From Candidatus Margulisbacteria bacterium GWF2_35_9 (GTDB lineage: Bacteria > Margulisbacteria > Riflemargulisbacteria > GWF2-35-9): a stretch of 64,000 bases of DNA. The position numbers and the translations under genes are program-made. Below the pieces are notes generated by a model, which was not told the origin of the DNA, ran no database searches, and worked only from the letters and a program-made list of their open reading frames with translations. The DNA lies in the NCBI GenBank assembly GCA_001783275.1, contig MFRH01000061.1, positions 11,524-75,523 on the forward strand, in the 5' to 3' direction. Shown one piece after another: positions 6,029 to 62,190 of the stretch (its first letter is position 1; the number at the start of each line of letters is the position of its first letter).

Positions 6029-6090
6029 AAATCGGCAACAGGGAAAAGAAAACCCCTTGCTGCCGAAAACATTTTTAGGGCTTGAATTCT

Positions 6091-40711: not shown

Positions 40712-42517
40712 ATGAAACGAATATTGACAGCATACAAAGACTTACTTGGAATAATATTCGGTAAAGCCCCGATAATGGTTATCGTCACTTTTTTATTAGC
40801 AATTATCACCGGATTATTAACTCCCTTAGGAGTTTATGTTAATCAGCATGTTTTTGACGGTGGATTGGCGGTAGCACAGGGTGTAATGACTTTTACGAGT
40901 TATTCTTTTTATCTTGTGTTGTTTGTAATAATTGCACTTTTGCCTACAATAATAAGCGGCATTGTATGGAATTATGTTCAGCCCCGTTCTATATTGATTT
41001 TAAGAACATCATATAAAGAACGTATGCTTAAGAAGCTTAAAACAATGAAGTACGAGCACTTTGAGAGTGAAAAGTCCGCAGAAATAATAGATAAAGCATA
41101 TAACAGAGCGGAAAGTTCGGCTAGACACCTGTGGCCTATGTATGTTAATTACTGGATAATATCTGTTATCTCCGGTATTGGCTCGCTTGCCTATATTGTA
41201 AGTATACGGTGGTGGCTTTTACTTACAGTTTTAATTCCTTTTATACTCGAAACATATATCTCATCAAAAACAAATTATAACATTTATTCCGAACTAGAAA
41301 CATATTGGGAAAAGGAAAGAAAGTACAGCACTCTCGGATGGTATTTAAGGTCAAGGGATTTTTCTAAAGAAATAAAAGCGTTTGGTAATTCAGACTATTT
41401 AATTGATACATATAAAAATAGGTTGAATGAGCGAAACAAGGATTATGAACGCTATTATTTTAAGAATCTGCGAAAGATATTGTTAGGAGAAAACATTACA
41501 AGAATTGCATCCATTGTAAATGTAATTATTTTACTTATATTATTTGTATACGGGAAGATGTCGGTGGGACTTTTTATTGCTATGACACGCTTGATGTTCG
41601 GCGGAGTATACGAGAGTTTAGGAGGATGTGCGTTTATATTCAAATGGGCACCATATCACATAAACTCATTCGATTATTATGACAAATTCTTTAACTTGTC
41701 CGACGAATCGGAGGGAACGGAGAAGGATCTACCAGAATCATTTGACATTGAGTTCCGTGATGTGTGGTTCCGATATCCGGGAACCGAAAAGGATATATTG
41801 AAAGGTTTGACTTTTAAGATAAAGAACGGAGAAAAAGCTTCAATTGTTGGAGAAAACGGTGAGGGCAAGTCAACCCTTATAAAATTATTACTAGGGATTT
41901 TCACTCCTGATAAAGGTGAAATATTAATCGGCGGAAAGAAACTGTACGACTATCCTTTAAGTGTTAGGACAAAAATATTCGGACCGGTATTTCAAGACTT
42001 TTCCAGATACAGTATAACATTGAAAGAAAATATCGGTATCGGCGAAATCGATGAGATTGACAACGACAAAAAAATAATAATGGCGGCTAAAAAAGGTAAG
42101 GCAGATGAGTTTGCGGAGAAGTTTGAGAAAGGTTATGATACGCTGCTTGGCAGAGACTTTGATGGTGGCGTTGATGTATCTGGAGGGCAATGGCAGAGAA
42201 TAGCGATCTCCCGTGCGTTCATGGGTAATAAGCCAATATTGTTGCTGGATGAACCAACTTCCCAACTGGATCCGTTGGCGGAAGCTAATTTATATAACGA
42301 GTTTGCAGAAATAGCGGAGAACAAAACTGCGATTTTTATAACTCACAGATTAGGTTCAACAATGATCACTGACAGGATTTTCGTAATAAGCGACGGTAAA
42401 ATCATGGAATCTGGAACACACGAGGAACTGATGCGGTCAGAAGGTATTTATTCAAATATGTTCAACGCGCAGAAACAGTGGTATAAAAAGGAAGCGGAGG
42501 TCGTCGTAAATGCCTAA
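40712..42517 (+). CDS. ABC transporter permease/ATP-binding protein (exporter half-transporter)
   Basis: 6-TM TMD plus NBD: GENGEGKST, VSGGQWQRIAISRA, LLLDEPTSQLD, ITHRL. Confidence 0.85.
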   Translation: MKRILTAYKDLLGIIFGKAPIMVIVTFLLAIITGLLTPLGVYVNQHVFDGGLAVAQGVMTFTSYSFYLVLFVIIALLPTIISGIVWNYVQPRSILILRTSYKERMLKKLKTMKYEHFESEKSAEIIDKAYNRAESSARHLWPMYVNYWIISVISGIGSLAYIVSIRWWLLLTVLIPFILETYISSKTNYNIYSELETYWEKERKYSTLGWYLRSRDFSKEIKAFGNSDYLIDTYKNRLNERNKDYERYYFKNLRKILLGENITRIASIVNVIILLILFVYGKMSVGLFIAMTRLMFGGVYESLGGCAFIFKWAPYHINSFDYYDKFFNLSDESEGTEKDLPESFDIEFRDVWFRYPGTEKDILKGLTFKIKNGEKASIVGENGEGKSTLIKLLLGIFTPDKGEILIGGKKLYDYPLSVRTKIFGPVFQDFSRYSITLKENIGIGEIDEIDNDKKIIMAAKKGKADEFAEKFEKGYDTLLGRDFDGGVDVSGGQWQRIAISRAFMGNKPILLLDEPTSQLDPLAEANLYNEFAEIAENKTAIFITHRLGSTMITDRIFVISDGKIMESGTHEELMRSEGIYSNMFNAQKQWYKKEAEVVVNA

Positions 42518-44414
42518 GAAAATTAAAGACAAACTAGAAGAAAAAATACCTGTATACGAAATAAAATACGAGGACAACACCACAGACTTTGAAAAAGATA
42601 TACTAAAAGAAAATCCACCCAAGCTGTCATATTTGACAAAGCTATTTAGATATGTTTTCTCATCTGCGAAATTAATGTGCGGTATTTTTTTAGGTCTAGC
42701 GATAATATTAAGTATATTACAACCGGTAACGGCATTTATCTGGGGAAGATATATCGACACCGCAAACGGTTATTCTGGTAAAATAGAGATTTCATCACTT
42801 CAATTAATTTCACTTATCAGCCTTGCGGTGATATATTTGGTTATTGGTTTTATCATTAATCTTTTAAATCGTTATCTTTATGGAGGAGAAGATATTGAGC
42901 GAATAAGTAAAGTTCAGGATCATCGCTTACAGGAAAAATTTCAAGCGAAGTTATTCAAAAAAATATCGATGTTGTACCCCGATTATATGGAAGTACCGAA
43001 AATCAACGATATTATAAATCGCAGTTTTGATTCAATGGGTGGTGAATGGAGTTCTCTTCAAAGAGGAGTTATTATCGAAGGGTATATTATTATTGCGAAA
43101 ATTATCTCTGTTATAATGGTTGCCGCTTCTTTGTATATTTTTAATCCGATATTATGCTATATAGTGCTGGTAGCACCGATACCAACTCTTTACACAACTT
43201 ATGTAGGAAACAAATTAAAATTTAAGTTTTCGCGTGATAACGGGAAGATCCTGCGTGAAGCTGATTATTATCAACGAGTGCTGCTTGGCAGTTCAGCAAA
43301 AGAAGTAAAAGCATTGAATCTATTTGATTTCTTTTTTACAAAGTGGAAAGTATTAGCGGATGATTATGTGGTGAAAGAAAAGAAAAACCAGCAGAATGTG
43401 TTTTTTCTCGGAATGGCAAGCGGCTTTGTATCAAATATTGCAAGTATTACAGCGAACGTTTTCGCGATTATTCTAATGACGCAGGGTAAACTATCGGTCG
43501 GTGCACTGGGTGCGGTCTTGTCATTGAATGGAACTCTCTTGAACAGCACATCCCAATTATTCAACTCAGTCGCAAACTTTGTATCTAAGAAAAACGAATC
43601 GGCACAGTTTTTCGAGCTTATAGATTTAAAAGAACAGATGTTAAAAGATGTTATGAAAAAAGAAACACCGACCATCGTGAATACATTGGAAGCTATGAAT
43701 ATATGTTACCGTTATCCTCTGACTGATGAATACAGAATAAGAAACGTAAATTTTACAATAAATAAAGGTGAAAAAGTTGCGTTTGTCGGTGAAAATGGTG
43801 CAGGTAAAACAACGTTCATAAAATTATTAATAGGAATGCTTGAACCGTCAAGCGGAGAAGTCCTGATAAATGGAATTGATGTGAAATATATTAATTTTTC
43901 AGAAAAATATGATTCTTTATCATATGTTTTTCAGGAACCAGCCAGATTTAACACATTTACAATCGGTGACAATGTTTTTTTCGGCGAAGTGAAGAGAGAA
44001 CGAAACGAAAGTCAGATAGACAAAGCCCTTAAATTTTCCGGTTTTGAAGGAGCAGAAAAAGATACGTTACTTGGTAAAGATATTGGTGGAACTGATTTAT
44101 CCGGTGGCCAGTGGCAGAAAATTGCTATCGCTCGTGCTTATTACAGAGACCGTGATTTTATTGTTCTTGATGAACCTACCAGTAATTTAGACCCGTTTGC
44201 CGAATCCGAAATTTTCAGAAAATACATAGCAATGACAGAAGGAAAGACTGTCATCATGGTTACACACAGAATAAGTGTCGCTTCACTTGCCGATAGAGTC
44301 GTTGTTTTCAAAGACGGTGAAATTGTTGAAGACGGCTCTCATGAAAAGTTATTATCAAATAATGGTGAATATACAAGGTTATATTCAACACAGGCAAAAT
44401 GGTATGACAGATAA
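42510..44414 (+). CDS. ABC transporter permease/ATP-binding protein (second half-transporter, heterodimer partner)
   Basis: GENGAGKTT, LSGGQWQKIAIARA, VLDEPTSNLD, VTHRI. 8-nt overlap with the upstream gene. Confidence 0.85.
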   Translation: MPKKIKDKLEEKIPVYEIKYEDNTTDFEKDILKENPPKLSYLTKLFRYVFSSAKLMCGIFLGLAIILSILQPVTAFIWGRYIDTANGYSGKIEISSLQLISLISLAVIYLVIGFIINLLNRYLYGGEDIERISKVQDHRLQEKFQAKLFKKISMLYPDYMEVPKINDIINRSFDSMGGEWSSLQRGVIIEGYIIIAKIISVIMVAASLYIFNPILCYIVLVAPIPTLYTTYVGNKLKFKFSRDNGKILREADYYQRVLLGSSAKEVKALNLFDFFFTKWKVLADDYVVKEKKNQQNVFFLGMASGFVSNIASITANVFAIILMTQGKLSVGALGAVLSLNGTLLNSTSQLFNSVANFVSKKNESAQFFELIDLKEQMLKDVMKKETPTIVNTLEAMNICYRYPLTDEYRIRNVNFTINKGEKVAFVGENGAGKTTFIKLLIGMLEPSSGEVLINGIDVKYINFSEKYDSLSYVFQEPARFNTFTIGDNVFFGEVKRERNESQIDKALKFSGFEGAEKDTLLGKDIGGTDLSGGQWQKIAIARAYYRDRDFIVLDEPTSNLDPFAESEIFRKYIAMTEGKTVIMVTHRISVASLADRVVVFKDGEIVEDGSHEKLLSNNGEYTRLYSTQAKWYDR

Positions 44415-44597
44415 GATGCTTATACTTGACTTAATAAACGTATGGTTATAAAATTAATGTTATATTTGTCATAGTGATGAATGCGATAAATATCTGAATT
44501 GAGTATCTTTTTAATGAATTTTCTTAATTTTTAATGGGAGGTATGTTATTATTGATAAAATAATTCATATATAATTTTTAAAATTTTATAAACTAAA

Positions 44598-44626
44598 GAA
44601 AACCCCATAGAGATTTTGTGGGGTTT
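44598..44626. terminator. bidirectional terminator
   Basis: aaaaccccat-agagattttg-tggggtttt. Confidence 0.6.
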
Positions 44627-44661
44627 TCCTTAGGGAGTTATAATGAAAAGTAGATAGTAAA

Positions 44662-46323
44662 TCAATTTTTAATAAATCTAACCATTCCGAATGTTGTGGG
44701 ATTATAATAGTCATACGTAGGATTAGACCAACATAAGACTGCATCAAGATCGGAATCATTCGTATCAACATTATTTAACACGAAATCCATACCGAGGTAA
44801 TTCAAGTTGGAGTAATTTATACCAAGTTTTTCCCATGATAATTGTAATGAAATCAAGTATCCCGATTCTGTTATTTTAAATGAAGCATCCTGCTCGTTTA
44901 GTGGAAAAGGTGTGTAAGCTCTTGTGTCTTGCCATTCTCCAATATACATAGAATCTATTCCATATTCACCTTTATCATTTATATATGGTGAAACAAATAT
45001 ACCGGTTGTAATTCCACTTTTATCAGTATCGAAATTTGGATTATATATAATTATATTAATACTTTCTGTCCACTTGTTTTCTCTTCCGGCTCCGCCCACC
45101 ATGACAATAGGATCATTAATATCAAACTCTATATATAACTTCTGTTCATCATATCGCATTGCTATTTTGCCATTATAATCATTTTTAGGTGTCAAAGCAC
45201 TTCTGCATATTGTACCAAAACGTTTTTTGGTTAAAGAATTTGATTTTTCGTCCATTAATATTTTAAAATTGCCTTTACTGTACTCACATAAATATTGCGA
45301 ATTATTCTCTAAACATTTCTTTATTACTTCTTTATTAATATCACTTAAATTTTTAGAACATAGATCCTTGCAGGAATATATTGTTCTAATATTTCTGTAA
45401 ATTTGGTCTTTCCAAAAGTTACAATCGTATTTTTGAATAACTTCCAATATTTCATCATTCAAAGGAGTAATACCTAATAACTCTTTTGACATTTTATTCG
45501 CGAACAGAATATCTTCAGAAAATCCATATAATTCTATTCGTTCATATAATATATCTTCATTTATATCTTCACGATATTTCTCTAAAATTAGTAATCCATC
45601 AACCAATGTCTTAAGATTATATTCAATAAAAGATTGTTTACTGTAATACCAATTAGATCCAATGCTGTCGAAAGTATGTCTTGCTGCGTGTTGTAACGCA
45701 AAAATGAATCTATCATATACATCACAAACATATATAGTTTTATTGTCTAACAAGAAAGGCTTTTTATGTAAAAAAACAGTTTCAATAAAATTATTACCGG
45801 TGCTTGTTTGAATAGAAAACCAACTTGCACTAACTGCCACATGCAGCTCTAAGTATATGTTCAATATTTTATCTTTTTTTAGGAATTTATCAATATGATG
45901 ATGACTCTTGTAACTTAAGTCTTTTTTAATAAGTTCAGGAGTTATTTCTTTTTCTCCATATTTATATTCTAATGATTTACAAGCATTACTAAATCTGACT
46001 ACATCACATGGCCGAATAAGTATATCAATATCATTTGACGGACGTTCATTCGGATTGGAATAAAGGTCGTAAGCTTCAGCAATACCTTTAAATAAAATAA
46101 TCTCTATATCCAGTGATTCGGCAATCTTGAAGAGCCTCTTTATTTCTTCTTTTATTTCAATCTGCCTATGTTTTTGTATTAATTTGGAGGTTGAGTTTTC
46201 ATTATTACTTTCTTTAGTTAAGAAATATTGAAGCCCAAAGAAAGTAGAATCTTTTTCAAGGTTTTCATCTTTAATATTTTGCTTGATTACTTTATTAATT
46301 TGGTCTAGAGTACCGTTAATCAT
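44662..46323 (-). CDS. nucleotidyltransferase-family protein (PF14907-like N-terminal half) with C-terminal beta-rich domain
   Basis: ILFKGIAEAYDLYSNPNERPSNDIDILIRP fits the 'uncharacterised nucleotidyltransferase' signature found in lasso/HPr-rel-A systems. Confidence 0.55.
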   Translation of the reverse strand: MINGTLDQINKVIKQNIKDENLEKDSTFFGLQYFLTKESNNENSTSKLIQKHRQIEIKEEIKRLFKIAESLDIEIILFKGIAEAYDLYSNPNERPSNDIDILIRPCDVVRFSNACKSLEYKYGEKEITPELIKKDLSYKSHHHIDKFLKKDKILNIYLELHVAVSASWFSIQTSTGNNFIETVFLHKKPFLLDNKTIYVCDVYDRFIFALQHAARHTFDSIGSNWYYSKQSFIEYNLKTLVDGLLILEKYREDINEDILYERIELYGFSEDILFANKMSKELLGITPLNDEILEVIQKYDCNFWKDQIYRNIRTIYSCKDLCSKNLSDINKEVIKKCLENNSQYLCEYSKGNFKILMDEKSNSLTKKRFGTICRSALTPKNDYNGKIAMRYDEQKLYIEFDINDPIVMVGGAGRENKWTESINIIIYNPNFDTDKSGITTGIFVSPYINDKGEYGIDSMYIGEWQDTRAYTPFPLNEQDASFKITESGYLISLQLSWEKLGINYSNLNYLGMDFVLNNVDTNDSDLDAVLCWSNPTYDYYNPTTFGMVRFIKN

Positions 46324-47353
46324 ATACTTCTACCTTCTTTAATTGATTTTTCAAATCATATCCTATGAATTGTAACTTTCTGAATTCACAATCGCCATCA
46401 TTACCAAGCGGGTCATTTGATATAAAATATGCAACCGCCATACAGCCTTTTTTACAATGACTTCTGATTATGCATTTCGAACAACCATAATCGATATTTT
46501 TTCTTTCGAGATTTATTGCTGCAATCTTCAACAAGTTTGATTCGAATTCATCTAATGAAAAATTAAATATATTACCTATACTATATTTACTATCATATAA
46601 TAGCTGACATGGTAAAATTGAACCATCGACTTTTATAGATATTTGCATTTCAGACTCAGTATCGTCAAGAGGACAATTTGAAGTACACAAGGGAGGAAAA
46701 ACTTTTAGTTTATACTCCTTATTTAATTTATCAATTAATTTAATAACAGATAGTTTTTGTGTTGCTGTTAAGCATTTTTGTTCCCAATCTTTTTCACCGT
46801 TTCCGGCACGGCTAATAAAAGCATAACTAGGTTTTATTCCTTTATTTAAAGAAAAAAGATAAAAGTTTTCTACATCTGATATATTAAGCTGTGAAATAAC
46901 CATCTTTAGGGTCATTTTTTTCTTATGTTTTCTTAACTCATCTATTAATTTAACTGTTTTACCGAAATTATTAGTTCCTCTTGTTTTTTTATTTATTTCT
47001 TCACATGAACCGTCAAGGCTTATCTGAAACGATAAATTATCAGTATTTATATATGTATTGATAATATTTTCATTAAAGATAGTCCCGTTTGTTATAATAC
47101 AAAATCTTAAGCTTGGATATTTCTCAGTTAATAAAGCAATCTTATCAATTTCGCTGTGAAGAAAAGGTTCGCCACCAGAAAAAACTATTTCGGTACAACC
47201 CAATTCTAACAATCTATTTATTATTAGATCAAATTGACCATATGATATTTCTTTTCTTATGTTGTTTAGCCCTGATCGGTTATAACAAGTATTACAGTTA
47301 AGATTGCATATATTTATTATTTCGATATAAGCTGAGTTAATTTTGATATTCAT
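46316..47353 (-). CDS. radical SAM peptide maturase with SPASM domain
   Basis: CNLNCNTC (CxxxCxxC). C-terminal Cys-rich CSKCIIRSHCKKGC auxiliary-cluster motif. Confidence 0.85.
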   Translation of the reverse strand: MNIKINSAYIEIINICNLNCNTCYNRSGLNNIRKEISYGQFDLIINRLLELGCTEIVFSGGEPFLHSEIDKIALLTEKYPSLRFCIITNGTIFNENIINTYINTDNLSFQISLDGSCEEINKKTRGTNNFGKTVKLIDELRKHKKKMTLKMVISQLNISDVENFYLFSLNKGIKPSYAFISRAGNGEKDWEQKCLTATQKLSVIKLIDKLNKEYKLKVFPPLCTSNCPLDDTESEMQISIKVDGSILPCQLLYDSKYSIGNIFNFSLDEFESNLLKIAAINLERKNIDYGCSKCIIRSHCKKGCMAVAYFISNDPLGNDGDCEFRKLQFIGYDLKNQLKKVEVYD

Positions 47354-47613
47354 GATTCAATAACTATCTTTTTTTCGATGAGTGAGTTAATGAAATCAGT
47401 CACATCATCTGATATTTCATTTGAAGTTATATCGTATAATTGTTTAAGATTCTTTATTATATCTTCCTTTTCGTTTATACCATCAATTTGCTTTAAAATA
47501 TCAGCTCCGCTTGCTTCAATAATATGTGTGTTTCCGGTATCGGGATCAAAAATAGCATAATTATCATTGTCGATTTCAATAAAATCAAACTTGTTATTCT
47601 TTACTAAACTCAT
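47350..47613 (-). CDS. PqqD family peptide chaperone (RiPP recognition element)
   Basis: 87 aa, PqqD-like three-strand/three-helix pattern. Overlaps both neighbouring genes. Confidence 0.65.
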   Translation of the reverse strand: MSLVKNNKFDFIEIDNDNYAIFDPDTGNTHIIEASGADILKQIDGINEKEDIIKNLKQLYDITSNEISDDVTDFINSLIEKKIVIES

Positions 47614-48055
47614 TATTTGTCGTCTCCTTTAAATATTTTTGTTTATATTTTTTATAAATATTACTTTCTATTGTTTTAAAATAATCATAGTCATTTCTGA
47701 CAAACTCTTTATTAACCTCTAAAGACATATTTATAAAATCAATATCAACACTAGGAATATCAAGCACTTTTCCTATAATGTCATTTTTACCTACTTCCTC
47801 TAACCTATAACAATTATCACCTTTACAGTAATATTTACCGTCTTTTATTTCAAGGATTCTATGTATTAACAAACCTTCATCGTTATACTTAAAAACAATC
47901 ACCGAACCTACTTCATATTCTTTCGCTTTCTTTATTAATACTTTATCTCCGTCCTTTAATACAGGAAACATACTGTTTCCGACTACTGTTATTTGAAACG
48001 AGTTTTGGGACTCTGTTTTATGCTTTAAAATGCTGAACATTATTTTGTTATTCAT
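47594..48055 (-). CDS. S24/S26 family (signal-peptidase-I/LexA-like) serine peptidase
   Basis: VVGNSMFPVLKDGDKVLIKK resembles the GDSMxPTL catalytic-Ser box. Confidence 0.5.
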   Translation of the reverse strand: MNNKIMFSILKHKTESQNSFQITVVGNSMFPVLKDGDKVLIKKAKEYEVGSVIVFKYNDEGLLIHRILEIKDGKYYCKGDNCYRLEEVGKNDIIGKVLDIPSVDIDFINMSLEVNKEFVRNDYDYFKTIESNIYKKYKQKYLKETTNNEFSKE

Positions 48056-48860
48056 AAGATAATTCCTTTATATAATCCAAAACAAAATTCATATCTGAAT
48101 ACCTTAGTATCTTACATTTTGATGATAACTTACTCAAAAATGATATATATTTTGAACTTACTTTATATGTTGTTGCGGCATTCTTCATAAGTAGCACTAA
48201 AGCTTTTGATGTAGGTATATCAACGACTTCATTTTTTTCATCAGTCCGTTCAATAAAAAAAATGTATCCTAGTTTCATTACATCAGGTGATAAGTTATCT
48301 GGATTAAAAATAAATCTCTGTATGGTAGGTGTATTTATAATTGTGGATATTGGAGGTTCAGTATCGTATTCTTTAAGTACCTGCATCCCTCCTGCTCTTA
48401 AATGAATAGGCACTTGGTAAGGATAAAAATCGAAGTTCTTCATATCTATATATGTACAATCATCTGTTGCATAATTTAAACCTTTTAAAGTAAGAAAAGC
48501 TGTAAGCGTAGTTTTACCTGAACTTGTAGAAGCAGCAAATAAATATGAATGATTATTATAATAAACACATCCTGAGTGTAGAGCAAAAATGTTTTCATTT
48601 ATAGATGCGTTTTCAAAAATGATATTTACTATTTCCTGTAGAGGATTATTTGTTTGTTTCTTTTTATCGTAATAAACAACATAATATTTATCATCATTAT
48701 ATTTTTCGACATTGATTTCAAAACAAGAAACATCATCCTGTATATCTGTATAAGTATATTTACCGTACAAATTGCCAATCATACTGTGAATTTCAATGCA
48801 ATTTGTATTTATCTTTATATATTTATATGAACATGGTTTCAGTAAATAAATACTTAACAT
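48048..48860 (-). CDS. HprK-related kinase (HPr kinase C-terminal-domain-like P-loop protein)
   Basis: HSGCVYYNNHSYLFAASTSSGKTTLTAFLTLKGLNYATDD parallels the HprK [25 protein letters not shown] segment. Confidence 0.6.
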   Translation of the reverse strand: MLSIYLLKPCSYKYIKINTNCIEIHSMIGNLYGKYTYTDIQDDVSCFEINVEKYNDDKYYVVYYDKKKQTNNPLQEIVNIIFENASINENIFALHSGCVYYNNHSYLFAASTSSGKTTLTAFLTLKGLNYATDDCTYIDMKNFDFYPYQVPIHLRAGGMQVLKEYDTEPPISTIINTPTIQRFIFNPDNLSPDVMKLGYIFFIERTDEKNEVVDIPTSKALVLLMKNAATTYKVSSKYISFLSKLSSKCKILRYSDMNFVLDYIKELSYE

Positions 48861-48987
48861 CTTCTACACCTTATGACATTATTTTTAAATTAAATGGATT
48901 ATAACACATATTTTTTTCAATTGCAATAGGATATTGAAATTAAACTTGCAAAAATCGACATTTTTAACAAAATAATGCATCAATGTA

Positions 48988-49015
48988 TTGACAATTTTAA
49001 ATTTTTAGATATAAT
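48988..49015 (+). promoter_or_regulatory. consensus sigma-A promoter
   Basis: TTGACA-16 nt-TATAAT. Lies inside the ORF-track ORF 48975.., which argues for the later start at 49053. Confidence 0.5.
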
Positions 49016-49052
49016 AAAATTATATAATAATAAAAAGGGGTGTATTAATGTT

Positions 49053-50081
49053 ATGAAATATATAAAAACACCTGGTGAAATATATGACTTATTTAAGCTA
49101 TTTATATACAATTTTAACAAAGAAGATTATGATAAAAAAATACTTAATGGTAATTCAAGAGAATTTGAGTTATTATGGAAAACGGTATTAAATGGTTCGC
49201 AAATAAACGATAAATTATATATGTTTTTTTATAAATTAAATAATAAATCAACTTTTATGACAGAGCATTTTTTTACTTCATTTTATAATGATTTTACTGA
49301 TCCAGATTTTTTTACAAATATGTGCGAAAGAATTCGTTCCATGGATTTATTTGTCGAAATATTAAAATACTATTTAGATAAAGATTCCTTTGAAATTCGA
49401 GATGTTTATTCTGCTGATTATATTTATGAATTGTCATTAAAAATTGATATACCCGATAGAATTAGACTTCAAATATTACATTTTAATTATAACAGGAATC
49501 AATATTCAGATATTTTAATTAATGAGTTAAAAGAAAAACATGAGCTTATAAAAAATTATTATTCCGAAAATTCTAATAAGATAGATGAAATTAAAAATTC
49601 AATGTTAAATGATCTAATACAATTGAATTTATGCAAGGAAATTGATTTAAGTTCAGAATATATGAATACTTATTATTATTCTGTTTCATTACTTCAAGAT
49701 AAATTCTATGCTTTTTTAAATAATCAAAATAAAGACTTTATTGTAATAGGTTACGATTCGATTAATAACTTAGATTATATTAACAAATTCAAAAATAATG
49801 TTAACATAAGTAAAGTTTCGAAAGCTCTTTCTGATGAATTTCGTATAATTATGTTAAATTTTATAAAAGAAATAGGCGAAATTACTACCTCTGATATTGC
49901 AAGAGAATTTAATATGGGACTTACAGCAATGTATTACCATTTAAGCATGCTTTATGAAGCTAAAATCTTAAGTACACGCAATGAAGGAAGGACGGTGTTT
50001 TACAAAATTAATAGTGAATTTCTAGAAATCTACTCGGAGTTTATTAAACGGTTCGCCTTGGAAGGAGGTGTAAATTTATGA
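49053..50081 (+). CDS. hypothetical protein with C-terminal ArsR-type winged-HTH
   Basis: ITTSDIAREFNMGLTAMYYHLSMLYEAKILSTRNEGRTVFYKI. Start at the in-frame ATG downstream of the promoter. Confidence 0.5.
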   Translation: MKYIKTPGEIYDLFKLFIYNFNKEDYDKKILNGNSREFELLWKTVLNGSQINDKLYMFFYKLNNKSTFMTEHFFTSFYNDFTDPDFFTNMCERIRSMDLFVEILKYYLDKDSFEIRDVYSADYIYELSLKIDIPDRIRLQILHFNYNRNQYSDILINELKEKHELIKNYYSENSNKIDEIKNSMLNDLIQLNLCKEIDLSSEYMNTYYYSVSLLQDKFYAFLNNQNKDFIVIGYDSINNLDYINKFKNNVNISKVSKALSDEFRIIMLNFIKEIGEITTSDIAREFNMGLTAMYYHLSMLYEAKILSTRNEGRTVFYKINSEFLEIYSEFIKRFALEGGVNL

Positions 50082-50200
50082 AAAAATGGTCTAAACCTAC
50101 CGTTATAACAATAAGCGAAAAAGAATTACAGGAAATAATATTAGTTCAAGCATGTTCTGGATATAAATGCGTATTGTTTTATGGACAAATTGAATTTTAA
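50078..50200 (+). CDS. candidate 40-aa RiPP precursor peptide MKKWSKPTVITISEKELQEIILVQACSGYKCVLFYGQIEF
   Basis: GGAAGGAGGTG SD 7 nt upstream. ATG overlaps the upstream stop (ATGA). Charged leader and Cys/Tyr/Gly-rich C-terminus. A strong terminator follows. Below the ORF-track size cutoff. Confidence 0.4.
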   Translation: MKKWSKPTVITISEKELQEIILVQACSGYKCVLFYGQIEF

Positions 50201-50235
50201 CATATTATTATGTTAAGTGAGATTGATATTAATAA

Positions 50236-50290
50236 CTGCACCTAATTATTTATGTAGTGTAAACATAAGTAATTAAGGTGCAGTTTTTTG
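50236..50290 (+). terminator. strong rho-independent terminator
   Basis: ctgcacct...aggtgcag stem with a structured internal loop, followed by TTTTTT. Confidence 0.6.
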
Positions 50291-50538
50291 TGTAAAATTT
50301 TATATCGAATTTTGGATTATATTAATTAAAATTGATGAATTCAATAGATTATTTAAGTCGAATAAAGTAGAATAATGAAATAGAGTTATTAAATATAGAC
50401 AAAATAATAATAAAATGTTTGGTAATATTTATATTAAACTAATTGTTGTAATTCAAATATAAATAGAGTATAATATAAAAAGATTTAAACCAACAACATG
50501 AATATAAATTAATAAATGCAAATTGGAGGTATTAGTAA

Positions 50539-50960
50539 TGTTAGCGAATAATAAAACTAAAATTTTATCAAACGGAAAAATGTTATTAAGACCATTTAAT
50601 ATGAATGATGTAGGTGATATGTATTGTAACTGGTCAAATGAAATGGGCCATGTATTTTTTCCTAAATATTCACTTCATATGAACTGGGAAATAACATTTG
50701 AAAGAATTAGGAATATAATCGATTCATATTTGTCAGAAGATACATATATATGGGCAATTGAATATAGTAATGGAGTTATTGGCTATATCGAAGTTGTTAA
50801 TATATATAATAATGATTCATCATGCTGTATTTATTACTATTTATGTTCTAAAGTTAATGATAAGATTTTTATAAATGAAGCTATAAGTTTAGTAGATAAT
50901 TATTTGCAAAATTCTATTGGTATAAATAATATTAAATACAAAGACATACTTAATACTTAA
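50539..50960 (+). CDS. GNAT family N-acetyltransferase (RimJ/RimL-like)
   Basis: LLRPFNMNDVGDMYCNWSNE-type N-terminus. Start chosen at the ATG with GGAGG SD. Confidence 0.55.
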
Positions 50961-51123
50961 ATTATATAAAGAATTAATTATTAGAAGAAAGTTTTGAAAG
51001 AAAAAGTATGCTTCCAAAAAAATATTCGAATATAACCTCATATACAAGAATAGCACAATTATTTTTATTTTGATAGTTTTAACAAATTTAATTATATAAT
51101 TATTAAAACATATAATTTAGTAA

Positions 51124-54100
51124 ATGTATTGGAAAGGTAAAATAATGAAAAATATATTACCAATCAATTTAAATCCAAAAATCACATCAGAATGTTGGAC
51201 ATATTTAAGATCAGCTATAATAGATGCATATCCACATCTAATTAATTGGTATGTTAATCATCTTGACATTTTATATATCAATGATAATTTTGATGTTAAT
51301 TATGGTGAATATGGAGATAAGTATCAAGTTTTACAACATTATGAATCTGTATTAAATTCTTATACCAGAAATATACTTGATTTAACATATGATAATATAA
51401 TAGATTTTATTATAGAACAAATTAATAATGATAAATATATAATGATTGATTGTGATTTATCAAAATCAATAAATATAAATATTGGGCAGATATTAATTTA
51501 TGGATATGATATGGAAGAACAGATTTTTTATATAGCAGGAATTGGAACTGGATGCTCAACATATCTAATGAAAGTTATAGCCGAAGCATTTCTTGTACGT
51601 AAAGTTATAGATCTTAAAGAGTTAGAAAAAACTATATTTAATAGACAAGTAATTTATCCGATATCTATATTTGAAGTACGCAAGGATTGTAATATTGAGC
51701 CAGATCTTAATTTATTTCTAAATCATTTAAAAAGACAATTATCTCGGATAAAATATGATAAGAATTGTGAAAACTTCAATTCATCTTTTAGGGAAGGGAT
51801 TTGTTCGGTTTATGACGGATTCTTAGAAATGCTTGTTAAAATTAAAAATGGCACTTTTGATGTTACAACAATGATTCATAGTTTTCCGTATAATTTTAAT
51901 AAACTTATTGAATTTCATAATGTATTTAAGTGGCGCTTGGAATATTTAAATAATCTATATTCGTTAAATATAAATAATAATGTATATTCCAAACTAGATT
52001 TAACAATTAAAGAACTCGAAATATGTAAAAGTTTAGCATCTAAATATTTAGAAACAAGAAATAATAATAATATTGATAAAATACAAAATTATTTAATAAG
52101 TATATTACTAAAAGAAGAAAATCTTATATCAAACTTAATACAAAAGATATCAAAAAATATTTTATATGGATTTGAATCTTATTTTTATAATAATTATGAA
52201 ATGAAAATAAATAAAAAAATAAAGAAAATTATCCAATGTCCCATATTATTATATCATCATTTTGTGAATGAAGAAACAGCTAATATGGAAAATAGAACAA
52301 CTGCTATGAAATTCGAAGAAGATATTAGTATACTTATTGAACATGGCTATAAATCTATATCACTTGAAGATTTTTATAAATACGAAATAGGTGTAAAAGA
52401 ATTACCCGAAAAACCATTTATTATTACGATAGATGATGGATATCTTAGTAACTATGAAATAGCTTTTCCGATTTTAAAAAAATATAATGTTTATGCTGAA
52501 ATATTTATTGTTACGGATTTTATCGGTTTAAATACTCATCCGGATTTCCCGAACCTTATACCTCATTTTAGTAATGGACAAGCTATAGAAATGGAACAAA
52601 GCGGATTAATTAAAATACATTCACATGGAAAATGGCATAAACCAAATGCTTATATGAGTTATGAAGAATTTTCAATAAACATCAATGATTCTACGCAATC
52701 AATAAATAATATTAAATTAGATAAGAACTTTGTCTGTTATGCTTATCCTGAAGGAATTTTTAATGATTATACTATAGATATGATTAATAAGGAAGGTTAC
52801 AAATATCAATTAATAAATAAAAATGATTTAACAATTAGTAATTTAAATAAAGGATGTTTAGGAAGGATTTGTGTTAATCATAAATCAGATGTTTATTCAT
52901 TAATAAAAGATTACAATGTTTATATAAACAATTTTATAAATAAATTATATAAATCAGAAACTCTTATTTTAAGCAATGATATATTAAGTAAATACAAAAA
53001 CTTAAGTACTATATTAGATGAATGTCAATTTAAGTATAAAAACAAATATGATTATAATATAAAGTCCATTAAATATGATGGAATAGATATTACATGCAAT
53101 GAAGATGAATTAATAATATATAGTTGTAAAAAAGCGTTAAAGGAAACGCAGTCGGATAATTATGAAATTATTATAGATAAAGATAATAAAATAATAGGCG
53201 ATAACATAAGTGGAGATACTGTTATTCCCCAGGGGGGATATGTTTTATCAAGTAATGGAAGAGCATGCAAAACTTTAAAGTCAATGTATATACCAAATGC
53301 TGATGTATTTATTTGTAAAAGTGAAAATAAAATATTAATTTTAGAAACACCGAAACTAAGAATACATAACACTTTTTTGTCATTTGAAAATATTAAAGAT
53401 AAGTTTGAAATATCTAAGAATAAATATTTTTATTTTAATTATCAAGAAATACAGAATAAAATAGATGAATTACAAATAATAGTAAATGACTGTAAATCAT
53501 CATTAGAAATTAATGAAAACGAAACATCGTTGCAATTATCCAAAGTAATTAATGATCAAATTAAAAACATTGAATATATGCTTATTCCTAATAAAGTTAT
53601 AGAAAACCGTGCTGTATGGTATAGAAGCAATGAAAAAAGTGATATTGCAGTAAGAAAAGTAATTGAAAAAGTATCATCATTAAATATTAATTGTATATAT
53701 TTGGAAACATGGTATGATGGTAAGTTTATAGGATATTCAGATAATCCCCTTATTGAGCATCAAGAGTGGCATAATAGTAATTTTGATGCACTTGAAGCAT
53801 TTTGTCGAATAGGACATGAATATAATATAGAAATTCATGCCTGGGTAGAAAATTTTTTTATAGGCACAGTTGAATCTGCTCTAGTTAATAAAAACAATTT
53901 AATTAATAAGATGGAGGATAGATACCTTTTAGATAAAAATAATAATTATTACAATCAAACTGTATATGGTAAATACGTTTTTCTGAATCCATATGATAAT
54001 TACTGTAGAGATTTTTTATTAGATTTATATAAAGAAATATTATTAAAATATAGTGTTGATGGAATACACCTTGATTATATTCGCTTTCCTGATTTAAATT

Positions 54101-54999
54101 ATGGAAAATATGATTATGGTTATAATAAAGATATAATCCGTGGTTTCCAATATAAATATAATACATATGTTGATGTGCGTTCTCTAAATGAATCTGATGA
54201 GATGCATAAAGAATGGTGCAAATTCAGAGAAGATATAATTAATAGTTTTGTTGAAGAAGTACACAATTTAGTTAAAAGAGTAAATCATAATAAATGGATT
54301 TCATGCGCATGTTATTCTAACGTTGATATTGCACCAAAAACTATTTTTCAAAATTTGTCTGAATGGGTTAAGAATGGTTGGATTGATGAAGCTTTTTCGA
54401 TGTCCTATGCCGAAAATTGTTCATATGTTGAAAAAAGTGCAGATTCGTTTATAAAAATATGTAAAGATAATGTATTTTATTCAATAGGATTAAAAGCATT
54501 TGACGATATTCCTGAATTGGATGTATTAAATCAAATAAAAACTTCTAGAAATAAAAATACAAACGGAATATCTTTATTTGCTTTAAATTATATAGATAAT
54601 TATGAACATATATTAAAAAAAGGAGTATTCAAACAAAAATCTGTTCAAGCATATAAAACAGATAAAATAATTACTGTGGGTATAAATGATATTTTAATAA
54701 AGATATCGAATGCTAATTCATACTTAAATTTATCAGGCACTAATTGTTTAGAAAATATCAGAAATCATTGTTTAGCGTTAATAACTAAAACGGAAATGTT
54801 GGATTTTTCTAAATTCAATAATGATGATAAAGTTACTTATGTTAATGATTGTATTAACGATATTAAATTAATTATCGAAACAATAGATGCATATACAATA
54901 AATAAAACTCTAGAAATATCTTTGAAAGAAGACTTTCTAATTTTGCTTAGCTTATTAAATAAAAATAAGAACAGATTAGTATCAAATATGTCGAAATAA
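51124..54999 (+). CDS. 1291-aa multidomain protein: unknown N-terminal domain + CE4 polysaccharide deacetylase + GHL10/DUF187 glycosyl-hydrolase-like domain
   Basis: PILLYHHF...ITIDDGY (NodB). CIYLETWYDG...IHAWVENFF...DGIHLDYIRFPD (DUF187/GHL10). No signal peptide. Extremely AT-rich. Confidence 0.55.
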   Translation: MYWKGKIMKNILPINLNPKITSECWTYLRSAIIDAYPHLINWYVNHLDILYINDNFDVNYGEYGDKYQVLQHYESVLNSYTRNILDLTYDNIIDFIIEQINNDKYIMIDCDLSKSININIGQILIYGYDMEEQIFYIAGIGTGCSTYLMKVIAEAFLVRKVIDLKELEKTIFNRQVIYPISIFEVRKDCNIEPDLNLFLNHLKRQLSRIKYDKNCENFNSSFREGICSVYDGFLEMLVKIKNGTFDVTTMIHSFPYNFNKLIEFHNVFKWRLEYLNNLYSLNINNNVYSKLDLTIKELEICKSLASKYLETRNNNNIDKIQNYLISILLKEENLISNLIQKISKNILYGFESYFYNNYEMKINKKIKKIIQCPILLYHHFVNEETANMENRTTAMKFEEDISILIEHGYKSISLEDFYKYEIGVKELPEKPFIITIDDGYLSNYEIAFPILKKYNVYAEIFIVTDFIGLNTHPDFPNLIPHFSNGQAIEMEQSGLIKIHSHGKWHKPNAYMSYEEFSININDSTQSINNIKLDKNFVCYAYPEGIFNDYTIDMINKEGYKYQLINKNDLTISNLNKGCLGRICVNHKSDVYSLIKDYNVYINNFINKLYKSETLILSNDILSKYKNLSTILDECQFKYKNKYDYNIKSIKYDGIDITCNEDELIIYSCKKALKETQSDNYEIIIDKDNKIIGDNISGDTVIPQGGYVLSSNGRACKTLKSMYIPNADVFICKSENKILILETPKLRIHNTFLSFENIKDKFEISKNKYFYFNYQEIQNKIDELQIIVNDCKSSLEINENETSLQLSKVINDQIKNIEYMLIPNKVIENRAVWYRSNEKSDIAVRKVIEKVSSLNINCIYLETWYDGKFIGYSDNPLIEHQEWHNSNFDALEAFCRIGHEYNIEIHAWVENFFIGTVESALVNKNNLINKMEDRYLLDKNNNYYNQTVYGKYVFLNPYDNYCRDFLLDLYKEILLKYSVDGIHLDYIRFPDLNYGKYDYGYNKDIIRGFQYKYNTYVDVRSLNESDEMHKEWCKFREDIINSFVEEVHNLVKRVNHNKWISCACYSNVDIAPKTIFQNLSEWVKNGWIDEAFSMSYAENCSYVEKSADSFIKICKDNVFYSIGLKAFDDIPELDVLNQIKTSRNKNTNGISLFALNYIDNYEHILKKGVFKQKSVQAYKTDKIITVGINDILIKISNANSYLNLSGTNCLENIRNHCLALITKTEMLDFSKFNNDDKVTYVNDCINDIKLIIETIDAYTINKTLEISLKEDFLILLSLLNKNKNRLVSNMSK

Positions 55000-55016
55000 A
55001 TATTTATTTGTAATAA

Positions 55017-56972
<1,956 letters not shown>

Positions 56973-57335: not shown

Positions 57336-58130
57336 ATGGTTGAACATGAGATGATGGTTAAGACAATCTGTTTTAAAACTTTAAGAGAATTGTTTGGATT
57401 AGATAATGATTTTAATATAATTGCGGGACCATGCGCTATCGAAAGTAAAGAGCAAATGGAATCAGTTGCAAAAATTCTAAAAAAGAATGCGGTTGTTTTT
57501 TTAAGAGGTGGAGCTTATAAACCTAGAACCTCACCCTATGATTTTCAAGGGTTAGGGTTGGATGGCTTAAAGATTCTTGATGATGTTAGAAAGTGTTATA
57601 ATTTACTCACAGTAACAGAGATCTTAGATCCTAGAGATGTTGAACTTGGAATGCGATACACGGATATCATTCAAATTGGTTCAAGAAATATGCAGAATTA
57701 TTCTTTATTGAAGGAGGTGGGAAAATCAAATCATCCAGTATTGTTGAAGAGAGGTATGATGGCAACACTACAAGAATTTTTATATGCAGCGGAATATTTA
57801 GCATATGAGGGCAATGAAAGAATTATCTTATGTGAAAGAGGAATTCGGACATTTGAAAATGGAATAAGAAATATGTTGGATATAGCTGGTATTGCTACAA
57901 TAAAAAATGAAACATCGCTCTCTGTTATTGCCGATTTAAGTCATTCATTGGGGCGAAAAGATATTATCAAATTAGTTGCAAAATGTTTGGTGCCATTATG
58001 TAATGGTATTATGGTCGAAATTCATCCAGATCCGAAAAATGCATTAAGCGATTCACAACAACAATTAAATTTCGATGAATTTACGGATGTAGTAAATGTC
58101 ATTCAAATGGTTTTAGATAGAAATAAATGA
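57336..58130 (+). CDS. 3-deoxy-7-phosphoheptulonate (DAHP) synthase, short unextended class I-beta form (264 aa)
   Basis: IIAGPCAIES...FLRGGAYKPRTSPYDFQG...KRG. 16-nt gap to the next gene and a shared operon structure. Confidence 0.75.
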   Translation: MVEHEMMVKTICFKTLRELFGLDNDFNIIAGPCAIESKEQMESVAKILKKNAVVFLRGGAYKPRTSPYDFQGLGLDGLKILDDVRKCYNLLTVTEILDPRDVELGMRYTDIIQIGSRNMQNYSLLKEVGKSNHPVLLKRGMMATLQEFLYAAEYLAYEGNERIILCERGIRTFENGIRNMLDIAGIATIKNETSLSVIADLSHSLGRKDIIKLVAKCLVPLCNGIMVEIHPDPKNALSDSQQQLNFDEFTDVVNVIQMVLDRNK

Positions 58131-58146
58131 TAAAGGAGTAATTACA

Positions 58147-59067
58147 TTGTATAATTTTTCAAGTAAACCTTTTATTCTCTGCAAATTAACAAACGCTTGT
58201 AACCAAAAATGTATTCATTGCTATACGGACGCTTGCGCAGGCGGAATTACTCAGTTGAAATCTGAACAAGTTATCGACTTACTAGAGGATATTGAAAAAA
58301 TTAATAAGGATTCTGTTGTCAGCTTTATTGGAGGAGAAGCAACGGTTTGGAAGGATTTTTTTGAGGTGATATCTATTCCCAAATATAAAAGTTCTTTATA
58401 TCTCAAAGTAAATACAAACGGCACGGCATTGAAAGAACAGTCATATGATAAATTTGCTGACTCGTCACTATTTGAAACAAGAATTAGTTTGGATTATTAT
58501 TACAATTCAAAGCATGATTATTTTCGTGGGAATGGGACATTTGACAAGGCTGTCAATACTATAAAAGAATTAAAAAAAAGGGGATTAACCGTAACAACAG
58601 GAACTGTAATTAGCCGATTAAACTTTAAAGAAATAAATGAAATAATACAATATTTCCTCAAGCTTGGAATAGAAGTAATGCATTTCTTTCCTTTTTTGCC
58701 ACAGGGCCGTGGAAAAGAATTTATAGAGTTTACACTAAGCGATGATGAAAACACATGGGTTAAAAACGAGATAAAAAAATATCAGAAAAAGCCAGTATGT
58801 ACAGTACCTTGTGATACAGGGACATGTTATTTTAGCGTCACTTTTGATGGAAAGTGTTATTTACATTTCCCGGATAATTCAGAAGAAAAGAAAATTATCG
58901 GTTCCCTGAATGAGAAAAGGTTTTTAGACATTTACCAAGAGGTTTATTCACCCAACGATTATAATATAGTGGATTGCAGTCAATGTGCCTATTATAAAGA
59001 TCCGATCATGTGCAAAAATATGCATACATTTTGTATCGCTGATTTGGACCTTAGAGAGGGATATTAA
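58147..59067 (+). CDS. radical SAM/SPASM domain protein 1
   Basis: CNQKCIHC cluster motif plus C-terminal Cys-rich SPASM. TTG start with AAAGGAG SD. Confidence 0.8.
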   Translation: MYNFSSKPFILCKLTNACNQKCIHCYTDACAGGITQLKSEQVIDLLEDIEKINKDSVVSFIGGEATVWKDFFEVISIPKYKSSLYLKVNTNGTALKEQSYDKFADSSLFETRISLDYYYNSKHDYFRGNGTFDKAVNTIKELKKRGLTVTTGTVISRLNFKEINEIIQYFLKLGIEVMHFFPFLPQGRGKEFIEFTLSDDENTWVKNEIKKYQKKPVCTVPCDTGTCYFSVTFDGKCYLHFPDNSEEKKIIGSLNEKRFLDIYQEVYSPNDYNIVDCSQCAYYKDPIMCKNMHTFCIADLDLREGY

Positions 59068-59957
59068 TGCGTTGTTTTTTATCTTTAACCAATAGGTGCA
59101 ATAAACAATGCGAATATTGTTATTATCATGTAGGAGTTTTAGAAGCATCCAATTGTGAGCCATCACTTGATGAGATTAAAAAATGCTTGGATTTTTTACA
59201 TAAAATGAAATGCGATAGCGTTTCACTGACTGGCGGTGAGCCATTAGTTAGGAAGGACATAGTAGATATTATTAGTTATTCCCATAAAAAAGAGTTAAAG
59301 ATTACTCTCGTTACCAATGGAATGGCACTTGCACAATTTCTTAGTGATAAAGATATGCTTAATCAGATATCTTGTTTCGCTATTTCTTTGCATATCGATC
59401 AACATACTGATATTAATTCCTATTTTCAATATATGAACTCATTAATTAAAGAACTAAAAAAATTTCCGGGTCGTATACGATTAAATTTTACGCTCACAGG
59501 ATTCAACTATCATTATTTTGAGAAATGTATAGATTTTTGTGATAATTTAAACGTTAACTTTAATGTACAACCGGTTGTTCTAGATGAAAATCGAACCGGT
59601 AATAGTGTTCATTCCTTGAAAAACATTAAAAATGAAGAGTTGGAATATTTACAAATGTTGATATTGAAATGGGGAAAAAGCAGTAGTAATGAAAACTATT
59701 CAAAAAAACTTATAACTTATTTGGCAGGGCAACCGATTCAATATGATAAATGTCTGGCAGGAGTTAATTTTTTTGTTATACATCAGGATCTTACGTTACT
59801 ACCTTGTTTTTATAGGCAAGATGCTTCGGTTGGAAGCCTGTTAGACAAAAACTCCAATATTAATATCATTGATTTGTCAAAGAGGTTTAATAATGTATGT
59901 AAAAACTGTCAAGGCCCCCATTGTATAACCCTATGTGAGTTCGGAAAATATTTATAA
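59067..59957 (+). CDS. radical SAM/SPASM domain protein 2
   Basis: CNKQCEYC. C-terminal CKNCQGPHC. taATG overlap with the upstream gene. Confidence 0.8.
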   Translation: MRCFLSLTNRCNKQCEYCYYHVGVLEASNCEPSLDEIKKCLDFLHKMKCDSVSLTGGEPLVRKDIVDIISYSHKKELKITLVTNGMALAQFLSDKDMLNQISCFAISLHIDQHTDINSYFQYMNSLIKELKKFPGRIRLNFTLTGFNYHYFEKCIDFCDNLNVNFNVQPVVLDENRTGNSVHSLKNIKNEELEYLQMLILKWGKSSSNENYSKKLITYLAGQPIQYDKCLAGVNFFVIHQDLTLLPCFYRQDASVGSLLDKNSNINIIDLSKRFNNVCKNCQGPHCITLCEFGKYL

Positions 59958-59993
59958 TTCTTACATTTTACAAGGAAGGATGATGAAACTATT

Positions 59994-60923: not shown

Positions 60924-60934
60924 GGAGATATTAA

Positions 60935-61942: not shown

Positions 61943-62190
61943 GGTTAAATCCAAATATAACGATTCTTGACAGAAAAAAAAGAATTGATATTGCTGTTAA
62001 AGGAGGAGAAAGTATTACATTAAACAATATAGCTGCAGAAAGTTTTCGATATATTCAAGCAGGGAAAGGACCCGATGAAATAGTTAAGATTATTTTAAAT
62101 GAGTACGATGTCGATCGACAAATAGTTGAAGAAGATACCGATGAATTAATTGATATGCTAAAAAAATATGGAGTTATTATAGATGAATAA
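61921..62190 (+). CDS. PqqD family protein (RRE-like)
   Basis: LNNIAAESFRYIQAGKGPDEIVKIILNEYDVDRQIVEEDTDELIDMLKKYGVI is a typical PqqD pattern. Overlaps both neighbours. Confidence 0.65.
   Translation: MQKNESLRLNPNITILDRKKRIDIAVKGGESITLNNIAAESFRYIQAGKGPDEIVKIILNEYDVDRQIVEEDTDELIDMLKKYGVIIDE

Follow-up and report, generated by a model that had tools for sequence, protein, structure and literature searches.

A conserved 40-residue peptide gene paired with a winged-helix regulator gene is the probable precursor gene of a radical SAM/PqqD cluster in Candidatus Margulisbacteria bacterium GWF2_35_9

Whether a very short open reading frame (ORF) lying between two clusters of radical S-adenosylmethionine (rSAM) genes is a gene at all, and which enzymes would act on its product, is the question raised by a 64,000-nucleotide stretch of contig MFRH01000061.1 from Candidatus Margulisbacteria bacterium GWF2_35_9 (GenBank assembly GCA_001783275.1, positions 11,524 to 75,523), here called the window. 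The ORF, 40 codons at 50078-50200, directly follows a gene for a winged helix-turn-helix (wHTH) protein. A first-pass annotation had proposed it as the gene for a precursor peptide that may serve one or both rSAM clusters. Here the small ORF was found to be a conserved coding gene under coding selection. With a probability that we put at about 0.85, it is predicted to encode the precursor of a ribosomally produced and post-translationally modified peptide (RiPP) for the divergently transcribed operon at 48860-44662.

The translation of 50078-50200 is MKKWSKPTVITISEKELQEIILVQACSGYKCVLFYGQIEF, as previously quoted. Also confirmed were the upstream gene for a 342-amino-acid protein with a C-terminal ArsR-like wHTH domain, the overlap of its stop codon with the peptide ATG (ATGA), and a strong Shine-Dalgarno sequence (AAGGAGG) 9 nucleotides 5′ of that ATG. 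The peptide gene is predicted to be cotranscribed with the regulator gene and is probably translationally coupled to it. Because 112 ORFs of at least 30 amino acids occur in 20 kb of the window, a length of 40 codons is not significant by itself, and the reality of the gene rests on conservation. Close relatives of the peptide were identified on metagenomic contigs, P0001 with 93% identity and P0002 with 85%. Between the window and L002, which carries the 93%-identical relative, 12 codons differ, nine of them synonymously and three nonsynonymously, with 0, 3, and 10 nucleotide differences at codon positions 1, 2, and 3, respectively. L001 has a 3-nucleotide in-frame indel in the C-terminal part (the core) of the peptide (KCAPVFYLQIEF), and both contigs keep the ATGA overlap and the terminator hairpin described below. 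If the ORF had merely arisen by chance in the wHTH gene's 3′ untranslated region, as the abundance of short ORFs in the window might suggest, synonymous-biased divergence, an in-frame indel, and a strong Shine-Dalgarno sequence would hardly be expected, nor would conservation across rSAM homologues that are only 37 to 53% identical. The conservation data effectively refute this explanation and leave it next to no probability.

The description of the ORF as unannotated held only in part. The peptide is nameless and NCBI is not among the listed sources, but gene callers (JGI/IMG, ENA, and Logan) had already predicted the exact peptide on three contigs. Comparison of the peptides with NCBIfam and Pfam matched no meaningful family, and a word-indexed protein search with the 40-residue query returned only two near-identical relatives; remoter members were reached through the neighboring genes. 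The rSAM protein of the adjacent operon, which is 100% identical to a protein of the Candidatus Margulisbacteria bacterium GWF2_35_9 metagenome-assembled genome, has more than 334 homologues at 44 to 53% identity, mostly in Clostridia genomes and gut metagenomes, and gene contexts were compared for three of its homologues together with 79 metagenomic loci found using an alignment of the rSAM family. A profile hidden Markov model was built from five peptides and run on the small ORFs of these loci, where it identified matching ORFs in approximately 45, representing 27 distinct sequences that were aligned as A3. Conservation of the small ORF beside homologous rSAM/PqqD loci, on which the precursor proposal had been staked beforehand, was thus found and supports it.

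In the window, the peptide gene lies 1.2 kb from the divergent operon, and the same adjacency was seen in the approximately 45 loci. Related loci carry a wHTH gene of 340 to 360 amino acids that is usually divergent from the operon; among 39 such genes beside the operon for which downstream sequence was present, 36 were directly followed by the peptide gene, overlapping or at most 7 nucleotides away, and in the other three loci it was located elsewhere within the cluster. PqqD and rSAM-SPASM genes occurred together in the window and in every related locus for which sufficient sequence was available. Because the peptide family travels with this operon across loci, we consider the peptide to be the substrate of the 44662-48860 cluster.

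The consensus of the 27 aligned peptides is MKxWxKPxxxTxxxxELxxxIxAAAxSxxxCxxxxxR. Conservation is good over residues 1 to 25, and what follows is hypervariable except for Ser27 and Cys31 (window numbering); these two and Ala25 are conserved in ≥90% of the sequences, Ser being invariant and Cys near-invariant. Most members end in ...AAARSGxC[W/F/H]xGD[F/Y]R, giving a tail of ...C-x3-[D/E]-[F/Y]-R, and the window peptide falls into a smaller "A-C-S" subgroup (VQA-CSGYKC..., INA-CSDWTPC..., SGA-CSGFC..., and SSA-CSGW followed by a stop codon). The Cys/Tyr/Gly/Phe-rich tail had earlier been taken to suit rSAM-SPASM cross-linking; its Tyr, Gly, and Phe residues proved to be specific to this member, and what the family shares is the leader, one Ser, and one Cys. 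Individual variants occur on up to 167 contigs, many of them from human-gut metagenomes, the variant on 167 contigs being a 36-residue peptide ending in ...AAARSGICHFGDFR. No further member of the family was identified by a search of the window.

This pattern also bears on whether the peptide could be an unmodified small partner of the wHTH protein, such as an anti-repressor or a toxin/antitoxin-like product, with only a regulatory link to the rSAM operon. Such a partner would suit the tight translational coupling to the regulator gene. However, a conserved leader with a hypervariable core and conserved Cys and Ser residues are hallmarks of a modified precursor, the PqqD, rSAM, and PqqD-fused peptidase genes are invariably present, and three loci keep the peptide gene in the enzyme operon, apart from the regulator gene. 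We give this explanation only a slim chance.

The second cluster (57336-62902) comprises a 3-deoxy-D-arabino-heptulosonate 7-phosphate (DAHP) synthase-like gene, four rSAM genes (58147-61942), a PqqD gene (61921-62190), and an MftE-like creatininase gene (62183-62902) with an MftE score of 95.4 against a cutoff of 172. An MnmE-like GTPase gene after the creatininase gene runs off the window end (64000). The position of the peptide gene between both clusters and the aromatic-rich C terminus of the peptide could make it the substrate of this mycofactocin-like cluster, instead of or besides the first, and no other precursor-like ORF was seen near the second cluster or found for it in the window. 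Against this, its DAHP synthase, PqqD, and creatininase had no homologue in the approximately 80 loci carrying the peptide family or its rSAM, where only generic rSAM cross-matches were obtained. The distance is 8 kb, with a GNAT gene, a 1,291-amino-acid gene, and groES/groEL in between, and the transcript would stop at the strong terminator. In addition, the peptide matches no NCBIfam family, the mycofactocin precursor included. Given the absence of the marker genes from related loci, the strong terminator, and the intervening genes, there is no support for the peptide serving the second cluster, and that it does so is very improbable. The earlier suggestion of one or both clusters therefore narrows to the divergent 44662-48860 cluster. 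Mycofactocin-like processing by the creatininase was rejected, since this enzyme is not co-conserved with the peptide.

Several points count against assigning the peptide to the divergent operon as its RiPP precursor. The supporting loci are all metagenomic contigs or metagenome-assembled genomes, and when GTDB genomes were scanned with the rSAM, the matches had ≤28% identity and no locus was syntenic. Homologues of the wHTH protein on L015 and L024 are found with neither the peptide nor the cluster. The window peptide is atypical in having two Cys residues and no terminal Arg, and the window cluster lacks the genes for an acyl carrier protein (ACP) and an FkbH-domain protein that are present in most relatives. 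The rSAM reaction type is not assignable by homology, because every curated NCBIfam cutoff was missed by a wide margin (scores against cutoffs: ScmE, 111.8/400; StsB, 101/625; MftC, 92.7/265; PapB, 79.6/340; SkfB, 53.8/300; AlbA, 49.6/850). Likewise, the type of modification, the site of cleavage, and the tailoring of the Ser are predictions from sequence. The features of the locus are listed in Table 1.

Table 1. Positions of the features of the peptide locus and the adjacent operon in the window
Feature	Position	Strand	Basis or remark
Precursor peptide gene, 40 amino acids	50078-50200	+	Conservation, peptide family, position after wHTH gene
Predicted leader, residues 1-25	50078-50152	+	Boundary inferred
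Predicted core, residues 26-40, CSGYKCVLFYGQIEF	50153-50197	+	Boundary inferred
Shine-Dalgarno AAGGAGG of peptide gene, within 3′ end of wHTH gene	50062-50068	+	Read from sequence
Consensus sigma-70-type promoter TTGACA-16-TATAAT for wHTH-peptide bicistron	48988-49015	+	Sole perfect match in window; function predicted from sequence
Two-domain regulator: helical N-terminal domain of no assigned fold (~residues 1-235) and C-terminal ArsR-type winged helix	49053-50081	+	342 amino acids
Intrinsic terminator, 21-pair hairpin and T6	50235-50289	+	Folding energy; conserved in L001, L002
HprK-related/ScmC-like P-loop protein, putative peptide Ser kinase	48048-48860	-	TIGR04352, 40.9 bits vs cutoff 200; first gene of conserved operon
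Soluble S24/S26 (archaeal/ER-type signal peptidase I-like) peptidase, putative leader peptidase	47594-48055	-	TIGR02228, 59.1 bits > cutoff 51.85; Pfam Peptidase_S24
PqqD-family peptide-recognition protein (RiPP recognition element, RRE)	47350-47613	-	Pfam PqqD, 48.1 bits > cutoff 23.4
Radical SAM/SPASM peptide maturase	46316-47353	-	Pfam Radical_SAM, Fer4_12, SPASM; nearest solved structure SkfB
NTP_transf_5 nucleotidyltransferase fused to CBM9-like domain, putative tailoring enzyme	44662-46323	-	Last conserved operon gene in other loci
Pair of ATP-binding cassette (ABC) exporter half-transporters, probable product exporter	40712-44414	+	Homologous pairs in related loci

The gene order conserved across loci is HprK-like, S24, PqqD, rSAM, (ACP-FkbH), and NTP_transf_5, often with an ABC exporter pair. 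In the HprK-like protein, the GKTT P-loop, H95, D134, and R155 are conserved in 40 to 44 of 44 homologues, and no sequence match was found in the PDB. The S24/S26 peptidase carries the motifs GxS28MxP, H65-R66, and K78-G-D-N, which were present in 48 to 51 of 53 homologues; it has no obvious membrane anchor, and in many loci it is fused to PqqD. When a profile of the rSAM family was compared with solved structures, SkfB was nearest (84.6 bits), ahead of anSME, PqqE, and 5wgg, which we take to be CteB. The nucleotidyltransferase motif KG...R-x-S-x-D-x-D was found in all 29 homologues. In L035, L043, L047, L055, L057, L058, and L062, homologous ABC pairs come directly after the rSAM gene; cluster membership of the window pair is less certain because its GC content is host-like. 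In most clusters, genes for an ACP and for a glyceryl-loading FkbH-domain protein lie between the rSAM and NTP_transf_5 genes (e.g., L026, 11008-12219; L029, 11035-12925), so that most members of the family may bear an additional decoration derived from glycerate.

From these parts, a pathway can be proposed. The promoter at 48988 would drive a wHTH-peptide bicistron ending at the hairpin terminator. The leader, with the pattern W4-x-K-P7-x-[IV]-x-T-[IL]...E-L...I, would be bound by the PqqD recognition protein, which would present the core to the rSAM-SPASM enzyme; the latter would then form a cross-link in which the conserved Cys takes part, a thioether being the most plausible kind. The invariant Ser27 would be tailored by the HprK-like P-loop protein and NTP_transf_5, the S24/S26 enzyme would cleave after the small-x-small site V23-Q-A25 to free the 15-residue core, the ABC pair would export the product, and the wHTH protein would regulate the locus. 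The individual steps of specific chemistry, namely thioether formation, Ser phosphorylation, and cleavage after Ala25, are each tentative, ranging from doubtful to at best an even chance.

The small-x-small pattern is the classic signal-peptidase site. In the aligned sequences, the conserved [C/R]-S is preceded by AAA, VQA, INA, SGA, or ASA, with Ala (Gly once) at position -1 and A, V, S, I, L, or T at position -3, and it is because of these small-x-small residues that cleavage is predicted after Ala25. C-terminal processing by a creatininase or an S26 peptidase had been proposed. The creatininase does not accompany the peptide, and the most likely role of the S24/S26 enzyme is removal of the leader at the N terminus, C-terminal trimming being unlikely. 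In some lasso-peptide clusters, a kinase and a nucleotidyltransferase phosphorylate a Ser and then glycosylate the phosphate (PMC8498205). By analogy, Ser27 is the obvious candidate target of the kinase/nucleotidyltransferase pair encoded here.

In its fullest form, the proposal would amount to a new RiPP class. An undescribed rSAM-SPASM cross-link would be formed on a tiny motif, C-S-G-aromatic for the window subfamily or S-G-x-C-aromatic for the main one; the HprK-like, NTP_transf_5, and mostly also ACP-FkbH proteins would then phosphorylate the invariant Ser and add further groups to it; the leader would be cut by a PqqD-recruited, cytoplasmic signal-peptidase-like enzyme; and the product would signal back to its own wHTH protein in gut Clostridia and in this Margulisbacteria genome. 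That all of these parts hold jointly is conceivable, although we consider it doubtful.

Some related loci carry variations on the precursor gene. Of the rSAM homologues whose context was retrieved, the one nearest to the window rSAM (53% identity) is accompanied on L025 by a peptide gene (14330-14422) whose product ends in ...SSACSGW, so that its predicted core appears to be CSGW, four residues only, on this single contig. On L028, a Pseudoruminococcus-like contig (4735-7272, minus strand), an IS1595-family transposase gene (5727-7043) is inserted in the precursor gene, separating a 5′ part, MKTWKKFKIITLSPSQLSAYIK..., from a 3′ remnant, ...DYIKAAARSGQCWGGDFR. Second precursor-like peptides, 60 to 83 amino acids long, whose leader is related (...PEIIVINANQLSEYIKVSAKS...) and whose cores contain several Cys residues, were identified on L026/L027 (2736-2918, minus strand), L106, and L034 (2361-2612). 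Their genes adjoin a different rSAM-SPASM gene; on L026/L027 that gene also has a small PqqD-sized gene next to it, and two MutS_V-domain genes are nearby. The leader type seems to be common to more than one maturase family.

The transcription signals described by the first-pass annotation were recovered. The promoter consists of TTGACA at -35 (48988-48993), a 16-nucleotide spacer, and TATAAT at -10 (49010-49015). It is the sole 12/12 promoter match in the 46- to 52-kb region and the sole perfect TTGACA-N16-18-TATAAT in the 64-kb window, for which dinucleotide shuffles give 0.12. The gene callers started the wHTH protein at an earlier ATG (48975), inside the promoter (P0003, 368 amino acids); the start at 49053 is preferred because homologues begin with MKY or MEY. 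The long hairpin (50235-50284) is followed by a T6 run (50284-50289), the first T of which is paired. Its 21 pairs have a folding energy of -29.3 kcal/mol (z = -5.7), and none of 200 shuffles folded equally well. A simple terminator scan did not include it, as the stem is AT-rich and long. Searches of 48800-50600 against Rfam gave only spurious hairpin matches.

Residues 253 to 325 of the wHTH protein (the C-terminal ~75) match the ArsR/SmtB and SdpR models, and its AlphaFold model (predicted local distance difference test score, 92.9) comprises an N-terminal domain made of helices, a small beta unit, and a winged helix of the ArsR type. The word-indexed search with this protein returned five proteins; the family comprises 163 representatives at E values of ≤1e-10, nearly all full length. 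It probably regulates the locus. The intergenic region 48861-49052 contains a direct repeat, ATCGACATTTTTAA / ATTGACAATTTTAA (48954-49000), with copies 33 nucleotides apart, the repeat ATYGACAWTTTTAA occurring at 48954 and 48987. Overlap of the second copy with the -35 element of the wHTH-peptide promoter makes it a possible operator, although a repeat in DNA this AT-rich is weak evidence. Six contigs from different sequencing runs (L016 to L021) share one wHTH homologue, P0006, and each of them breaks off 52 to 55 nucleotides past its stop codon; they are uninformative on the peptide, and the shared ends suggest repeat or strain-variable sequence where the peptide gene would be expected. A short ENA contig (L022/L023) encodes a wHTH homologue of 48% identity with an ATGA-overlapping ORF starting MKKWTTPKV, after which the contig ends.

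The constant pairing of regulator and peptide genes, often overlapping, raises the idea that the peptide, modified or not, is mainly a pheromone sensed by the upstream wHTH protein, as in Rgg/SHP or ComR/ComS, and that the enzyme operon both matures it and is its target; this would extend rather than exclude the precursor role. The helical N-terminal domain of approximately 235 residues, to which no fold is assigned, could bind a ligand, ABC exporters are conserved in the cluster, and a direct repeat overlaps the -35 element. However, no importer or receptor gene is evident, and the domain order, with an N-terminal sensor and a C-terminal ArsR wHTH, is unlike that of known peptide-sensing regulators. 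Ligand binding by the wHTH protein is itself conjectural, and wHTH homologues exist without any peptide. A pheromone role is thus unlikely, and the preferred reading remains that of a RiPP precursor for the divergent operon.

GC content across 44000-56000 of the window is 0.235 to 0.29, compared with 0.35 to 0.39 in the flanks. This low-GC block holds the rSAM operon, the wHTH, peptide, and GNAT genes, and the 1,291-amino-acid gene, and it ends at groES/groEL. Relatives of the cluster are mostly Clostridia and the host is annotated as Margulisbacteria, which suggests horizontal acquisition of the block. The 1,291-amino-acid protein (51124-54999) has polysaccharide deacetylase and GHL10 domains, and homologues of parts of it are encoded immediately downstream of NTP_transf_5 in L086, L048, L060, and L097. 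Together with the CBM9-like domain on NTP_transf_5, these homologues hint at a carbohydrate link for the cluster.

The precursor family is widespread in dozens of gut and environmental bacteria, is unnamed, and is described neither by Pfam or NCBIfam models nor in the literature found. Searches of open full-text literature, including searches for literal core sequences, identified no description of the cluster; subscription-only papers were outside their scope. The overall logic of leader, recognition protein, rSAM, peptidase, and exporter is standard RiPP logic. What appears to be new is the enzyme combination, the fusion of a signal-peptidase-like leader peptidase to PqqD, and the fixed regulator-precursor pair. 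For an rSAM peptide, the set of an rSAM, a PqqD-fused signal-peptidase-like peptidase, an HPr-kinase-like protein, and a nucleotidyltransferase, with FkbH as an optional member, appears undescribed, and the assignment made here would supply the missing substrate of an rSAM family with hundreds of members. Peptides modified by rSAM enzymes are a growing source of new chemistry, antibiotics, and microbial signals, and their tiny precursors are often overlooked. The precursor family, its likely cleavage site, and the conserved Ser and Cys make the pathway testable by heterologous expression, and the fixed gene pair offers a simple handle for genome mining.

Among known systems, mycofactocin (MftA/MftB/MftC/MftE) shares a short peptide, a PqqD-like chaperone, and an rSAM-SPASM protein with the cluster, and a creatininase-family gene occurs elsewhere in the window. 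The rSAM falls well short of MftC (92.7 against 265), however, the peptide matches no curated precursor model, and the MftE-like gene, itself below its cutoff (95.4 against 172), belongs to the separate cluster that is not co-conserved. Resemblance to the SynChlorMet cassette (ScmC/ScmD/ScmE/ScmF) is closer in some respects, as ScmE is the top NCBIfam match of the window rSAM, the PqqD protein matches ScmD, and homologues of the first operon gene weakly match the Pfam ScmC model PF27840. Scores nevertheless remained far below the cutoffs for ScmE (111.8 against 400) and ScmD (33.3 against 100), the window protein itself had no ScmC match, and a second rSAM is lacking; the cluster has the peptidase, NTP_transf_5, and wHTH genes in addition.

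With the sacti- and ranthipeptide systems (SkfA-SkfB, PapA-PapB, and SCIFF), the cluster shares an rSAM-SPASM maturase acting, as predicted here, through a recognition domain on a Cys-containing core. Many cores of the family carry C-x3-D/E, which is the PapB-type substrate motif. Unlike in those systems, the rSAM lies below every synthase-family cutoff, there is usually one conserved Cys, PqqD is a stand-alone protein, and a kinase, a nucleotidyltransferase, ACP-FkbH, and a wHTH-coupled precursor are found.

The phosphorylated and phosphoglycosylated lasso systems (paeninodin and pseudomycoidin; HPr-rel-A, TIGR04352/TIGR04353) are similar in their PqqD-type recognition protein, HPr-kinase-like P-loop protein, NTP_transf_5-type enzyme, and ABC exporter, and in having a protease fused to or beside the recognition domain. 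The leader motif aromatic-x-x-P-x-[ILV] also resembles the motif that PqqD-like B1 proteins bind in lasso leaders. The TIGR04353 cutoff is passed only by the PqqD domain of the L026 fusion (38.5 against 35); the window kinase (40.9 against 200) and the window PqqD (23.7 against 35) do not reach the HPr-rel-A cutoffs. A lasso peptide was rejected, as no Asn-synthetase-like cyclase or transglutaminase-like B2 protease was found in the window cluster or the annotated related loci. In their place are an rSAM-SPASM enzyme and a signal-peptidase-like S24/S26 enzyme, and the conserved Ser lies early in the core here, whereas it is C-terminal in the lasso systems. Thus, while falling short of membership in either group, the cluster is hybrid-like in its predicted gene content, combining features of the rSAM thioether peptide systems (sacti- and ranthipeptides) with those of the lasso systems tailored by a kinase and a nucleotidyltransferase.

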